64,000 bases of DNA from an uncultured cyanobacterium (GTDB lineage Bacteria > Cyanobacteriota > Cyanobacteriia > PCC-9006 > JAAUQQ01), in assembly GCA_963718615.1 (NCBI GenBank), contig OY970368.1, positions 32,001-96,000 of the forward strand. Direction: 5' to 3'. Positions 1,021-8,679 of the stretch are shown here, one piece after another (within the stretch, counting starts at the first letter, position 1; each line of letters starts with the position of its first letter). The notes beneath the pieces are model-generated. The model had not been told where the DNA came from. It did no database searches and saw only the letters and a program-made list of their open reading frames with translations. A program made the position numbers and the translations under genes.

Positions 1021-1103
1021 GTACCTATAGGCTTTACTCTCTCAGCTTTCCCTCTCTGACTCTCTCATCTTTTTCTCTCTGCTAAAGTGATGCGTTCGCC
1101 CTG
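232..1103 (-). mobile_element. ISAs1-family element, left part with left inverted repeat CAGGGCGAACGCATCA (1088-1103)
   Basis: Minus-strand CAGGGCGAACGCATCA resembles ISAs1-type ends and lies just upstream of the transposase. Confidence 0.75.
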
Positions 1104-1466
1104 GATTGGAGAAGTGAGGTTGGCGAATTCGGCGAAGTGGAAATGGGCTTCGCCGCGCATTCCGAGGCCGGGTTTGAAGTTGATAATTTTGGCGATCCTT
1201 CGGAGCTTGGCGAAGCCAATCGCATTAAAGTTCCGACCGGCTTGGATGATGGCTTGGATGGCGTTGTCATTGAGGGTGGAGTAGTGGCGATCGCCTATCT
1301 GAATATTCTGGCCTTGGCCGATGTAGATGTTGTATTTGCCGTCGAGTTGCTGGACGGTTTCGGGGCTGCGGCTGAGGTATTGACGTAGGATGGCTAGGTC
1401 GGTCGGGGTTGGGTTTCCGGTTTCGATGCGTTGCAAGATTTGCTTGAGTCCATCGGGGAGGAGCAT
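1065..1466 (-). pseudogene. EAD10-like N-terminal domain protein, interrupted by ISAs1 at ~1103
   Basis: MLLPDGLKQILQRIETGNPTPTDLAILRQYL...GKYNIYIGQGQNIQIGDR resembles the N-termini of the adjacent NACHT proteins. The last 12 codons are read from the IS end. Confidence 0.65.
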
Positions 1467-1606
1467 CGGATTTTGGGGCTGCTGGGAATAAGGTTTCTGG
1501 TTTGAGTTTTATTGTAGTTTGGGTGCTGATTATTACGCTGTTGGGGGGGGGTGAGGCATACTGAAGGCAGTTCAGATTTGCCCTCCTTAAATTTTTCTGA
1601 AGCCCT

Positions 1607-4600
1607 ATGGCGACGCCGGATGAGCTATTGCTTTTGGTAGACCGCATTCTCAGCATGGTTGGGGATGAGGGAATTGAGTTGGAGCGGTTGCAACGGATGG
1701 AGGGTGGGCAGGGGGTGATTCAGTATGTTGTCCAGATTGGGAAGTACAACACGAATGTGGGGCAGGGTGAGGGGATTGAGATTGGCGATCGCCTGGATCG
1801 CTCAATTCTAGAAGAAATTCGAGATTTGTTGCGATCTCAACTCGCTCCACCACCAACCGAAATTGACTGGCAGCAGGTGAGCCGATCGCTCCTCAATCAG
1901 CAAATCCAGCGCCTGACCACGAACCCGCTGACCCATGCCGAGGGCATTGCCTATCGGACAGAGCAGGTGTACGTGCCGCTGGGGTTGGTGGAGCGCAAGC
2001 AGGTGTCGCGTCGCCGGGAGGATGTGTCGCCGGAGCAAGGCTCGTTGCTGTATGAGGAGACGGAGATTATCCAGAAGTTTGAGCAGGGGACGTTTCTGGA
2101 GCAGGTGTTGCGGCAGGGGCAGAGTCCTCGGAGTGGGGGGCGACGGATTGCGGTGATTGGGGAGCCGGGAGCGGGGAAGACGACGCTGTTGCAGCAGATG
2201 GCCCGGTGGGTGGCGGAAAATATTGAGGGGGCGATGGCAATTTGGGTGTCGTTGGCAGATTTGCAGGGGCGATCGCTGGAGGATTATCTGCTGGAGCAGT
2301 GGTTGCCAGCAGCGGTGCAGCAGCAGGGACGGGCGGAGGCTTCGACCCAGGTAAAGGATGCATTGGTGGCGCAGTTTCGGGCGGGGCGGGTGTGGCTGTT
2401 GCTGGATGGGGTGGATGAAATGCCGGTGGCGGCGGGCAATCCGTTGAGTGAGATGGAGCGGCAGGTGCGGTTGGGGGGCTTATTGGCGCAGGCGCGGATC
2501 GTGTTGACTTGTCGGTTGAATCTATGGGATGGCGATCGGCATGCGCTGGATACGTTTGATGTGTATCGGACGTTGGAGTTTGCTTATCCGGGGCAAGTGG
2601 AGCAGTTTGTGGAGCAGTGGTTTGGGGCGTTGCCAGAGGCGCAAGTGGGGCAGGCGGAGAAGCTGTGTGAGGCGTTGCGGCAACCGGGGAAGGAACGGCT
2701 GCTGGATTTAGTGAAGAATCCGCTGCGGTTGACGCTGTTGTGTTTCAACTGGTATTTGGGGGAGGGGACGCTGCCGGAGACGAAGGCGGGATTGTATGAG
2801 CAGTTTGTGGCGGATTTCTATGAGTGGAAGCGTGAGCGGTTTCCGACGACAGCGGCGCAGCGGCGGCGGTTGAATGCGGCGTTGGGGGAGTTGGCGCGGG
2901 AGGCGATCGACAAGGAGGAAACGCGGTTTCGGCTACGGCATGACTTTGTGTGTGAGTTTTTGGGTGAGCCGGATGAACCTGATTCGTTGTTTCAGATAGC
3001 GTTGCGGTTGGGCTGGCTGAATCAAATCGGAGTGGATGAAGAAAATCGGCGAAAGGCGGTGTATGCGTTTTTTCATCCTACGTTTCAGGAGTATTTTGCG
3101 GCGTTAGCTATCAGGAATTGGGATTTTTTCCTGCCCTATGAACACAATAACGTCTCTCCCAAACCCATAGAAGGTAAAGACTATAGGATATTCGATACCA
3201 ACTGGCAAGAAACTATTCTAATGTGGAGCGGAAAATCACAGGAGTACGACAATAGAAGGGCATTTATCAAAGCTCTGATTGATTTTCAAGGCGGATGTAG
3301 CAATTTTTACTCCTACAGGGCATATTTCTTGGCTGCAATTGTTGCATCACAGATCGGCGAGCAAGAGTTATCCAAAGAAACTATAATAAATTTGATCGAT
3401 TTGAGCTTCTTCACTAGATTTGAGCCAACAGCAGATGCTGATAAATACTGGCTGCATTGTCCAGTTCAAGAACAAGCAAAAGAAATACTGCAATTCACGA
3501 AGCGGAGTATTGCGATTGACGAACTAATTCAAGCAATAGACATAACAAGCAATTTATATAAACAGAATGACCTGGCTGAATTGATGGGTAAAATCAGCCT
3601 GAAACATCCCAGAGCCATTGAATTTTTAACTCAATTAATGAATCGCTCTGAACATAAATTTTCCACTGTGGATATAGCAAAGAGTCTATGGCTTGTCGAT
3701 CCAGGAAATCTCAACGCAGTCAATAAATTTATTGACTTGCTCAGCCCTGAAGAAGAAAACATGGTGTCAAGCCGCGCTGCTCAGGTAGTAGCGAGTAATA
3801 ATATTCAATCTCCTGGAATTATTTCTGCTTTAATTAACTTGGCCAAAAAAGACGGAAATGACTTCACCCTCAGTTCACAAGAAGTTTTGAGAGGATTAGA
3901 GAAATTTGGAATCCGTAATAGATCTATAATTGACACTGTGATTAATTTAATTGATATAGCTAAAATTGATAAAAGTCATGAAAATCAGCGCGCCCTAATT
4001 CGAACTCTTGGAGAAATTGGATTGGAAGATTTAAAGGCATTGAGCTATCTAATCAATCTACTGGATAAAGTTGATGATGAACCTTCTCGGTGGTTGATTG
4101 CTGACAGCATCGGAAGAATCGGCAATAAAAGTCCGAAAACAATCTCTATTTTAACTAATTTAACTTCTGAATGCGAGCATGAATGGACTCGCCAACAAGC
4201 GGCTGAAAGCCTTCTGAAAATTGTGCCCGATCATCCTGACGCATTGAATTTACTTGTAGATTTATTATATGTTACAAAGAATTGGCGGACTCAGCATCGA
4301 ATAATCCGAAGCTTAGAGAAAGTAGGTTGCGGAAAGAGATTGGCAATTGAAAATCTAATTAGATTTGTTGACCAACAGTTCGATCAACGTAGTTGCAATG
4401 AACATTGTCTTTATATTTGCGAACAAGCTGCTGAAGTTCTAGGAAAAATAGATCCTGGCAATGAGAAAGCTACTCACATTTTGATTGAACTACTCAATAA
4501 TGAGGATAATAAACCAGGCACTAACAGAAATATCATTTGGAAACTGGGAGATATTGGAAAAGGCAATATCAAAGCAGTCGAAGCTTTAACTCATTTTTTT

Positions 4601-7237: not shown

Positions 7238-7238
7238 A

Positions 7239-8522
7239 TCAATTCTGCGATCGCCCCACAGAAACCATCTGAACATTGTGGATAGAGCAGTTAGGAGGCT
7301 CTTGCTCCGCCGATCGTTTCACCCAGACCATCTCGCAATCCGGATCTGGGCACACATACTTCACGGCTTGAAATGCTTGTGGCTGGGTGCTCCCAACAAT
7401 TTTATTACCCATCACTTTATCCCCACCAACTTTATCGCCCGCAACCTTATCACCAGCCACATAATCGCCCTGGGGACTATAGTTATCGCCAATATGGCCT
7501 GTAAAGTGTCCAGTACTGATGTTGTATTTGCCTCGCTGCTCAACATTCTGGCTTCCAAAGGAGTTGCCGCTACCTGTGACGATCGTTGAATCTGAGGCAT
7601 TACCGCCGATCGCTACCGATCGTTCGCCCGAAGCGAGAACCTGCGTCTGAGGCTTAGCCGCAGGAGTAGTCGTTTGCATCGCATCCCAGCCACCGGAAGG
7701 TAAACCCTTGCCCCCTTGAAGTAGCGCGATCGCAAATCGTTCCGTGTCTCGCATTTCAAAGCGTGGAGTTTGCTGCTGCTTCATTGCCGCTGCTGTGGTA
7801 GGGACAGTTTTCCCCAGGTGGTTCGCTAAGTCAAAGACGGTGACTTCTGTTGCACCGGCCTGACTTGCCGCACCTTGTAGGGCTTCAATCAAGTGGTAGG
7901 TGTAGACGCTCATGGCATTGTCCGGTCGAACCCAGGACTTCTCCTTGCCCCGGCAGGAGGTGAACACGACCCGTCCTTCTCCCTGTTGGAGTGCGTCGAG
8001 CATCCCTTTGGGGTCAGCGGTGGGGATGATGCCTTTGGGAAGTCGAGGCAATTCGGCCTTATCTTTAGCGGAGGCCATTCCCGCTGCATGGCAACAGTCG
8101 AGGATGACCAATAGGCGTTTGGCCTTGATGGCTTGCAAGGCTTGATTAAAGTCATCGGCAGGCAAAGCTGTATCCCGCCAGTCATAGGCATCAAAATCGT
8201 GAGGTACAAGGTAATAACGATCGCTGGTTTGTTCTAGCCAGCCATGCCCAGAGTAGTAGACAATGACGGTAGCTTCTGGGTCAGTGGCAACACGATCGCG
8301 CAGCCAAGTGAGATTGTTAAGAATTGCCGATTTGGTTGCCTGCTTGTCATGCAGCAGCCGGACATGTTGATCATTATCGGGATAGGCACAGAGGACGGGA
8401 CTGACTAGAATTTGACGTAGGGCCTGCATATCCTGAACGGTAACGGGGAGGGAAAGTTTGGGATCAGCGCATTGCCCTACGCCAATGAGCAGTGCATATC
8501 CATGATTAAAACGCTCAGTCAT
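7239..8522 (-). CDS. Caspase-family (peptidase C14) protease with Gly/Asn/Asp-rich tail and C-terminal Zn-ribbon
   Basis: YALLIGV, catalytic His in YYSGHG and Cys in ILDCCHA, QQQTP. Tail has GDKVxGDKV repeats and CPDPDC...CSIH. Confidence 0.88.
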   Translation of the reverse strand: MTERFNHGYALLIGVGQCADPKLSLPVTVQDMQALRQILVSPVLCAYPDNDQHVRLLHDKQATKSAILNNLTWLRDRVATDPEATVIVYYSGHGWLEQTSDRYYLVPHDFDAYDWRDTALPADDFNQALQAIKAKRLLVILDCCHAAGMASAKDKAELPRLPKGIIPTADPKGMLDALQQGEGRVVFTSCRGKEKSWVRPDNAMSVYTYHLIEALQGAASQAGATEVTVFDLANHLGKTVPTTAAAMKQQQTPRFEMRDTERFAIALLQGGKGLPSGGWDAMQTTTPAAKPQTQVLASGERSVAIGGNASDSTIVTGSGNSFGSQNVEQRGKYNISTGHFTGHIGDNYSPQGDYVAGDKVAGDKVGGDKVMGNKIVGSTQPQAFQAVKYVCPDPDCEMVWVKRSAEQEPPNCSIHNVQMVSVGRSQN

Positions 8523-8679
8523 TGCTCTAATCCCTTGAAAAATCACATTTTTCACGATACATAAAACATCGCGTAATAGGTACGCGAAACAGCAAAATCA
8601 TAAAACCCTTGTTGAATCAGACTTTGAGCTGCATCAAGGCTGCGTTGGGCTTTTAAGAGCAATGCTTGCTGCGCTGGAG

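Follow-up and report, generated by a model that had tools for sequence, protein, structure and literature searches.

The stretch of DNA analysed here (the window) covers 64,000 nucleotides of contig OY970368.1 from an uncultured cyanobacterium (assembly GCA_963718615.1, positions 32,001 to 96,000 of the forward strand), and this study concerns the caspase and NACHT genes at its beginning. Positions 1–8555 contain, in this order, nested insertion sequence (IS) remnants, a gene stump bearing the effector-associated domain EAD10, an NTPase gene (NACHT-1), a convergent second NTPase gene (NACHT-2) and a caspase gene. A first-pass annotation had noted one short beta-prone motif in four neighbouring proteins of this region and proposed that several NACHT sensors act on the caspase through it; all four strings were found to be present and in frame. 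The genes and the elements of the caspase tail are as follows.

1065–1466, minus strand: truncated third sensor gene; Pfam EAD10 (7.9e-21) over residues 3–76
1607–4876, plus strand: NACHT-1; assigned from its Pfam domains and a Walker A motif in the translation
4925–7237, minus strand: NACHT-2; assigned from its Pfam domains, the orthologues P0154–P0161 and the start context
7239–8522, minus strand: caspase; 427 amino acids from the ATG at 8522, a GTG at 8555 being also in frame
7563–7631, minus strand: hairpin A of the caspase tail, SGERSVAIGGNASDSTIVTGSGN; 10.2 bits against the hairpin-half profile
7482–7532, minus strand: hairpin B of the caspase tail, GKYNISTGHFTGHIGDN, in frame in the caspase; the shared motif, kept in the orthologues P0163–P0166
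7392–7469, minus strand: GDKV-type pentapeptide repeats of the caspase tail, seen in the translation; the same repeats occur in P0169–P0173
7272–7361, minus strand: Cys-x4-Cys ... Cys-x2-His element of the caspase tail; conserved in P0163–P0166, no Pfam match

Sensors and caspase of the locus

The N-termini of the NTPases had been annotated as resembling EAD10, and the comparison with Pfam bore this out for all three (PF19954; 74.3, 43.7 and 55.9 bits against a cut-off of 24.1). When the 6,095,823-bp genome was scanned, these were the only matches above the cut-off; they lie within 7.3 kb, and the three EAD10 copies and the one hairpin-bearing caspase lie within 8 kb. Two further matches were below the threshold, the caspase (E=0.92 genome-wide) and a GAF/kinase-like open reading frame (ORF), the latter of which was rejected. 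Four other genomes have one to four EAD10 matches each: in G042 the sole match is the partial hairpin of the caspase itself, in G043 and G044 one of the matches lies beside the caspase, and in G045 a different contig carries two additional copies.

In ORF 1065–1466, EAD10 covers nucleotides 1239–1460, with GKYNIYIGQGQNIQIGDR in frame at 1287–1340 (minus strand), and is followed by unrelated residues. By Pfam, NACHT-1 consists of EAD10 (1607–1837, with GKYNTNVGQGEGIEIGDR in frame at 1739–1792, plus strand), NACHT (~2141–2623), HEAT repeats and NCC-H (~4760–4846), and NACHT-2 of EAD10 (7004–7228, with GKYVVNIEKALGQVHIGDR in frame at 7049–7105, minus strand), NACHT (~6227–6670), a variable region and NCH2 (~4967–5257). 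The NACHT profile scored 54.9 and 66.0 bits (cut-off 26.7), and the Walker A motifs read GEPGAGKTT in NACHT-1 and GKPGSGKTT in NACHT-2. For the NACHT genes, PADLOC returned only weak P-loop matches, and NCBIfam gave weak partial matches to EruA/HyoA (31–39 bits against cut-offs of 1000–1200). The aligned EAD10 N-termini and a structural model indicated the order helix, helix, two or three short strands, helix (model pLDDT 58). Kaur et al. 2020 (PMC7159879) describe EAD10 as 'alpha+beta', which agrees with this order. A PDB sequence search with EAD10 gave nothing significant (best E=0.12).

EAD10 is also found in other fusions beside related caspases, namely with a phycobilisome-protein-like domain (L007 2446–3576), with GUN4 (L015 11417–12904) and as EAD10-TPR-GreA/B-C-PIN (L010 9038–12682); a protein of the last type is described in Kaur et al. 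2021 (PMC8195603).

The caspase matched Peptidase_C14 in Pfam with 74.2 bits (cut-off 21.4), the domain covering about 7752–8501. Both catalytic residues are intact, as had been annotated: the protein contains SGHG and LDCCHA (His codon 8244–8246, Cys codon 8091–8093), and His93 and Cys144, in the numbering of the 427-residue protein, are invariant across 24 aligned homologues. Homologues begin at the Met of ATG 8522. With Foldseek, the caspase fold matched GSU0716, the MALT1 paracaspase and metacaspases best (probability 1.00), a PDB sequence search found nothing at 1e-3, and PADLOC returned the generic 'caspase' model only. In the protease-domain model, the mean pLDDT of 10-residue blocks was ~72–96 over most of residues 1–280, with two blocks at 49–63. 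The tail (residues 286–427) had a pLDDT of 29–45 and is predicted to be disordered; it is composed of G 20%, S 11%, V 10%, N 7.6%, K 6.3%, P 1.3% and L 0%, and Q is not enriched. The best NCBIfam match of the caspase was caspase_w_EACC1 (NF047832), with 108.1 bits, below the cut-off of 140, and the gene 5' of the caspase encodes an NTP_transf_2/PDC-S09-like protein, not EACC1.

It was observed that the caspase subclade of the window ends in GDKV repeats and a conserved CxxxxC...CxxH element without a family match. Judged only from its spacing, this Cys/His element is probably a zinc ribbon. The tails of P0169–P0173, which bear GDKV repeats, are otherwise unrelated.

The stop codon of the caspase had been placed 1 nt before the start of NACHT-2, and this gap was reproduced (TGA 7241–7239, ATG 7237–7235). 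The orthologues P0154 and P0155 begin at the Met equivalent to this start. The database copy of NACHT-2 (P0153, 764 amino acids) starts 6 codons later, with which the gap would be 19 nt, and an in-frame ATG at 7276, upstream of the start, would overlap the caspase.

The hairpin on caspase tails and its neighbours

Six-frame matches to the pattern GKY, 8–16 residues, IGD and then R or N were found four times in the genome, all at this locus; this count is descriptive only because the pattern was written after the four strings had been seen, and the comparison with Pfam EAD10 is the independent test. A motif profile was also considered that was built from 16 NTPase-side hairpins and included no caspase sequence. 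Against this profile the caspase scored 9.6 bits (E=2.1 over 54,937 six-frame genome segments), ranking sixth overall and third among the non-seed sequences. Against Pfam EAD10 it scored 12.7 bits (E=0.13, profile positions 33–62 of 77), the weakest of the four copies. The pattern of hairpin A occurs in the genome solely in the caspase, where hairpin A aligns with the hairpin of A-type EAD10 N-termini; the whole-genome Pfam scan found no A-type EAD10 in this genome. Alone, the caspase hairpin is not significant; on the evidence of its orthologues and its position it is real by descent.

This evidence comes from a set of 231 caspases, which comprises that of the window, those of 80 loci with related caspases and 150 cluster representatives, with some duplicates among them. 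The NTPase-only hairpin profile found the element in 12 of them at E≤0.011 (Z=54,937), with a top score of 29.7 bits. In these 12 caspases the element always lies at residues ~215–340, directly after the protease domain, and in nine it is ≤13 residues from the C-terminus. In the window, hairpin B is 82 residues from the C-terminus. The earlier placement at the C-terminus thus stood in that the motif belongs to the tail behind the protease domain, and failed in that it is not at the end.

Pfam EAD10 matched 11 of 14 caspase tails at E≤1, four of them at or above the cut-off, and the matches were confined to profile positions 31–75, with none reaching positions 1–30. With a profile of the helical half of EAD10, none of the 231 caspases was matched at E<1 (the highest score being 5.3 bits), and 26 ORFs in the same loci were recovered at E≤1e-3. 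Judged by these profiles, the caspase side carries the predicted beta-hairpin half of EAD10 only, and never the helical half. The hairpin is present in one or two copies on the caspase side, often two in tandem, versus one on the NLR side; with the hairpin-half profile, the tail of the L016 caspase has A and B in tandem at 20.1 and 20.0 bits. The N-termini with A-type hairpins score 28–32 bits to Pfam EAD10, and A and B are therefore regarded as two flavours of one element.

In a fixed order, the alignment runs from the caspase domain through GGKGLPxGGW, a short linker and an optional hairpin A (consensus G-D/E-R-S-V-A-x-G-G...I-V-T-G) to hairpin B (consensus Q-x-G-K-Y-N-x-N...I-G-D), after which the protein either stops or continues with another module. 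The modules after the hairpin are TIR (P0167, P0168, P0004, L006), CHAT (P0003), a DUF900 hydrolase (P0035, P0011), GDKV repeats with the Cys/His element (the caspase of the window and its orthologues P0163–P0166) and, in P0033, a fused NACHT whose sequence is nearly identical to NACHT-2 just beyond EAD10. The orthologues P0163–P0166 are 64–69% identical to the caspase of the window over tail residues 296–385, and the degenerate form of the window, N-I-S/N-T-x-x-F-T-G-H-I-G-D, is also kept in them. The same caspase family is fused in cis to NACHT as NACHT-HEAT-caspase (P0014, P0015, P0017, P0023), as caspase-NACHT (P0032, P0047, P0036) and as caspase-hairpin-NACHT (P0033), and these fusions provide independent support for a linkage of the family with the NTPases.

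A gene for 310–319 amino acids was seen directly 5' of hairpin-tailed caspases in several other, cyanobacterial loci (L020 7002–7961, L021 969–1928, L022 357–1292, L024 7026–7964, L092 12659–13591) and is absent from the window. When the gene was considered as a possible substrate of the gasdermin kind, its copies gave no Pfam match in L020, L021, L024 and L092 and no PADLOC match in L020, L024 and L092. Its product could be a substrate or a co-effector.

The co-occurrence of the hairpin with EAD10 was counted over the 80 loci at ≥12 bits, with a neighbour profile seeded from the same neighbours.

Hairpin-B caspase: EAD10-type neighbour in 7 loci, none in 2 loci
Caspase without hairpin B: EAD10-type neighbour in 3 loci, none in 68 loci

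An EAD10-type neighbour was thus present in 7/9 loci versus 3/71 (Fisher p=1.3e-6). The strength of this test is exaggerated by the close kinship within L007/L008, L018/L019 and L020–L022, which leaves about four to five lineages, and by the seeding of the neighbour profile. The three loci with a neighbour only (L014, L015, L029) have weaker hairpin variants or a cut caspase ORF. L022, which together with L016 is a counter-example, lies on a 3.5-kb contig. The types also agreed: tails with A only stood with A-type neighbours in five loci and B tails with B-type neighbours in eight, the mismatches being two for A/B and none for B/A, counted with motif-A and motif-B patterns that were loosened after the data had been seen. 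The two A/B mismatches are probably pattern noise, as probably are the type-pattern matches in the distant loci L035, L042, L044, L052, L056 and L062. It had been stated that the shared-motif proposal would fall if the caspase motif were unconserved or independent of NACHT neighbours; the motif is conserved in homologues of the caspase and occurs with neighbours that bear EAD10, so that the proposal did not fall on this ground.

Proposed coupling of sensors and caspase and its alternatives

We consider it rather probable that the locus encodes an EAD10-coupled NACHT/caspase conflict module, that is, a module of regulated cell death. This view is based on the domains found, on the hairpin common to both sides, which is conserved and co-occurs with EAD10-type neighbours, and on the cis fusions; the agreement of the hairpin types, the restriction of above-cut-off EAD10 matches in the genome to this locus and the 1-nt gap between caspase and NACHT-2 speak for it as well. 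In this module, the two intact NACHT NTPases would be the sensors, one with a HEAT/NCC-H tail and the other with an NCH2 tail, and a third sensor gene would have been truncated by an IS to an EAD10-only stump. Each sensor would present an N-terminal EAD10 adaptor of two helices, a beta-hairpin and a helix. The single caspase, without a full EAD10, would offer tandem hairpins in a tail that is rich in Gly, Ser, Asn and Val, free of Leu and predicted to be disordered. After a sensor has bound its trigger and oligomerised, the clustered EAD10 hairpins would capture the hairpins of the caspase tail by beta-sheet pairing, and the crowded caspase domains would turn active, cleave cell targets and stop the infected or damaged cell. 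Binding and activation by proximity are inferred for this module, as are its trigger, substrates and outcome. Its gene content fits the earlier proposal of several sensors for one caspase, with two intact and one truncated EAD10 NTPase genes and a single hairpin effector, the genome containing no other partner.

Several points weigh against this coupling. The hairpin of the window's caspase is degenerate (12.7 bits against Pfam EAD10, 7.7–9.6 bits against the hairpin profile), and the co-occurrence count is inflated by relatedness and by the neighbour-seeded profile. By eye, the caspase-side hairpins are more alike across loci than to those of their own neighbours. Two loci have a hairpin tail with no EAD10 neighbour on the available DNA; at L016, the downstream NACHT gene that overlaps the caspase with the A and B tail lacks EAD10, and the genome concerned gave no EAD10 match at E≤0.001. 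The EAD10 monomer model is poor (pLDDT 58), and the literature searched yielded no experiments with EAD10 proteins. A complex prediction of NACHT-2 residues 1–90 (18-row alignment) with caspase tail residues 292–378 (24-row alignment) gave a score of 0.00 and counts neither way.

The coupling of a NACHT protein to a caspase at this locus is already predicted by the EAD principle of Kaur et al. (2020, PMC7159879; 2021, PMC8195603), in which STAND sensors bear an adaptor that recruits effectors with the matching adaptor; the first-pass annotation named EAD10 but not this principle. Similar to the systems described there, the locus has a small non-catalytic adaptor on the NTPase, an adjacent effector, adaptor copies clustered in one locus and a cyanobacterial-type host; caspase, TIR and GUN4 partners and the EAD10-TPR-GreA/B-C-PIN protein of L010 are common to both. 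The difference is that the effector here has the hairpin third only, in one or two copies, whereas the available text of Kaur et al. describes the same domain on both partners.

Anti-phage function is plausible for the module by analogy with the family and from the defence-type flanks. It was reported by Kibby et al. (bioRxiv 10.1101/2022.07.19.500537) that bacterial NACHT proteins protect against phage, and the present proteins share with those the NACHT domain with NCH2 or NCC-H C-termini and the EADs among the N-terminal adaptors. Unlike them, the proteins here match EruA/HyoA weakly and partially, and a phage test of the EAD10 type was not found in the available literature.

The proposed coupling is also comparable to signalling in animals. 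In the apoptosome and the inflammasome, and with MALT1, caspases are recruited through CARD or PYD domains. The likeness to the locus would be that a protease of caspase fold is brought in by a STAND NTPase sensor via matching adaptors; the differences are that the adaptor here is unrelated to the death fold and that proximity activation is presumed.

The most serious alternative is amyloid-like templating. In this case, the hairpin would be a beta-arch stacking in register, and an oligomerised NACHT protein would nucleate caspase tails that contribute two rungs each, giving an all-or-none, self-amplifying switch as in the HET-s/NWD2 and BASS pairs (BASS1–10, Dyrka et al. 2020, bioRxiv 10.1101/2020.01.06.895854; BASS11 Bab/Agp, 10.1101/2024.11.07.622273). 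The first-pass annotation had compared the locus with these systems, and the part of the comparison that held is a short beta-prone element of ~17–20 residues common to the tail of the effector and the N-terminal region of the NLR, the two being encoded by adjacent or overlapping genes. It lies ≤13 residues from the C-terminus in nine homologues, the tail is predicted to be disordered as a monomer, and the hosts are of multicellular type in both. One or two tandem effector copies stand against one NLR copy, as in HET-s, BASS1 and BASS6, and the composition of the tail is near the bias described by Dyrka et al. Moreover, CHAT, TIR2 and alpha/beta-hydrolase effectors are reported to carry BASS motifs, and the same domains follow the hairpin in homologues of the caspase. 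The part that did not hold is the position on the NLR, where the motif starts near residue 45 and is wrapped in a helical domain, between conserved EAD10 helices and not at a free end. The caspase-side element is also non-terminal in the window (82 residues from the C-terminus) and internal in P0033, P0035, P0167 and P0003, the effector is a protease and not a Bell or HeLo pore-former, and Lys is not depleted in the tail. The two sides are only moderately alike, the identity between the caspase and NACHT-2 hairpins being low (~8 of 19 positions by eye). The likeness to BASS was judged from the published descriptions, in whose searchable text the letters of the motif were not found, and the amyloid reading is drawn from sequence. 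In the literature searched, nothing was found tying EAD10 to amyloid signalling, and the available text of Kaur et al. 2021 (PMC8195603) mentions prion-like assembly for death-fold and TIR domains only. We consider templating of this kind unlikely, although it deserves some weight.

As a tentative and likewise unlikely variant, EAD10 may be a capped amyloid-type motif, in which a stacking beta-arch would be silenced by the helices of the sensor until the NACHT protein oligomerises, after which the bare caspase hairpins would polymerise. Such a scheme would extend to the caspase-TIR, caspase-CHAT and caspase-hydrolase effectors, and stumps like ORF 1065–1466 would be decoys. If this were true, the EAD adaptors and the BASS amyloids would merge into one scheme, and a protease-activating prion-like switch would exist in bacteria.

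The hairpin could also be a vestige of domain shuffling, left over from fusion and fission of caspase and EAD10-NACHT genes, or a linker or autoprocessing region as in EACC1-type caspases, without contact to NACHT. The element sits exactly at the junction of the caspase with variable modules (TIR, CHAT, DUF900, NACHT, GDKV plus Cys/His, or none), P0033 retains it despite a NACHT fused in cis, the window copy is degenerate, and the identical EAD10 on different NACHT modules in P0154 and P0155 indicates active shuffling. Among the NCBIfam models, the caspase came closest to the EACC1-associated type, and the two-gene EACC1-caspase systems of Kaur et al. 2020 resemble the locus in having a related caspase family with an N-terminal caspase and variable C-terminal modules; they are unlike it in that the score here is below the cut-off and the 5' gene is a nucleotidyltransferase, not a one-helix membrane protein. 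However, P0163–P0166 retain the hairpin in its variant form, its type agrees with that of the neighbour, and EAD10-type neighbours are found together with it. In many homologues the protein stops directly behind the hairpin, so that it is not merely a linker. A vestige therefore appears improbable to us.

Finally, a chance likeness of a low-complexity Gly-rich tail to EAD10, for which the genome-wide values of E=2.1 (hairpin profile) and E=0.92 (Pfam) would speak, is hardly credible, since E=2.1 over 54,937 segments corresponds arithmetically to ~4e-5 for one pre-named neighbour, orthologous tails score up to 29.7 bits and reach the Pfam cut-off, and the position is fixed in the alignment.

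Sensor cassettes, mobile elements and significance

The surrounding features are as follows.

3100–5720, no strand: low-GC cassette; GC 0.31–0.41 versus 0.52 for the genome; DNA similarity to G033 ends at both edges
1–232, no strand: end part of a first IS, inserted into the second IS; 100% identical copies at at least five other places in the genome
232–1103, minus strand: copy of the second IS; 100% copy at genome 800833–801704
229–1020, minus strand: transposase fragment of the second IS; Pfam DDE_Tnp_1_assoc and DDE_Tnp_1
1191–1223, no strand: 32-bp dispersed repeat; at least 13 further genome matches with 88–100% identity

The guanine-plus-cytosine (GC) content drops from 0.58–0.63 to 0.31–0.41 at ~3100–5720, which corresponds exactly to the 3' halves of both convergent NACHT genes. 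The genome G033, which belongs to a different family, has the same convergent NACHT pair with 84% DNA identity to positions 2433–3102 and 5718–6949 of the window, and this similarity ends at the GC switches. The centre of the G033 locus (L092, G033:C101, 600–2400) has its own 1.6 kb of low GC (0.28–0.41), unrelated to that of the window, and gives the NACHT-1 counterpart another C-terminal domain. Conservation among the NACHT-2 orthologues extends to about residue 520; beyond it their sequences are entirely different until the terminal NCH2 motif. From the G033 mosaic, this divergence and the identical EAD10 of P0154 and P0155, we conclude that these genes exchange their signalling end, NTPase and sensor end as cassettes. 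By its composition and edges, the low-GC block looks like such an exchanged sensor cassette.

The nested IS region comprises window positions 1–1240 and, upstream, genome positions 30489–32232. The first IS, which we take to be of the IS3 type, has an open frame at 2–169 (plus strand) that continues a frame upstream of the window. The transposase of the second IS is split because the first IS inserted into it, and its C-terminal part lies upstream of the window. The 32-bp repeat directly follows the EAD10-coding part of the truncated gene 1065–1466, and a search of the 12 kb preceding the window did not reveal the NTPase remainder of this gene. Short EAD10-only ORFs (69–186 amino acids) were observed repeatedly beside related caspases (window 1065–1466, L029 8961–9161, L092 7464–8024, L021 293–721). 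They may be wrecks or small decoy-like regulators, presumably comparable to CARD-only proteins.

On the other side of the locus, a small nucleotidyltransferase gene (8680–9054), which matches the PADLOC candidate PDC-S09 at 1e-39, lies on the same strand directly 5' of the caspase, and a gene for a PtuB-like HNH protein (10500–10928) lies 2 kb away; these flanking genes suggest a defence-island setting. Further on, a methyltransferase-like gene (window 11023–12210) is split into the leftward ORFs 11803–12210 and 11023–11502 by an element of ~350 bp, of which a 99% copy lies at genome 389875 besides about nine diverged copies, suggesting an insertion like a miniature inverted-repeat transposable element.

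In this study, the observation of a motif shared by caspase and NACHT proteins was confirmed, and its interpretation was partly supported. Judged from its genes, the locus would be of the kind that the EAD principle predicts, with the twist that the effector bears a bare tandem hairpin, which would place it between the EAD and BASS schemes. The swapped low-GC cassette points to how sensors diversify while the signalling end stays constant. The EAD adaptors have been predicted by computation, and the locus is a compact, self-contained system in which to examine them: a hairpin of ~20 residues would suffice on the effector, so that peptides and point mutants can be used to probe the interaction. 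The locus thus bears on whether NLR-to-caspase signalling in bacteria works by docking or by amyloid-like templating, and hence on the origin of inflammasome-like logic.

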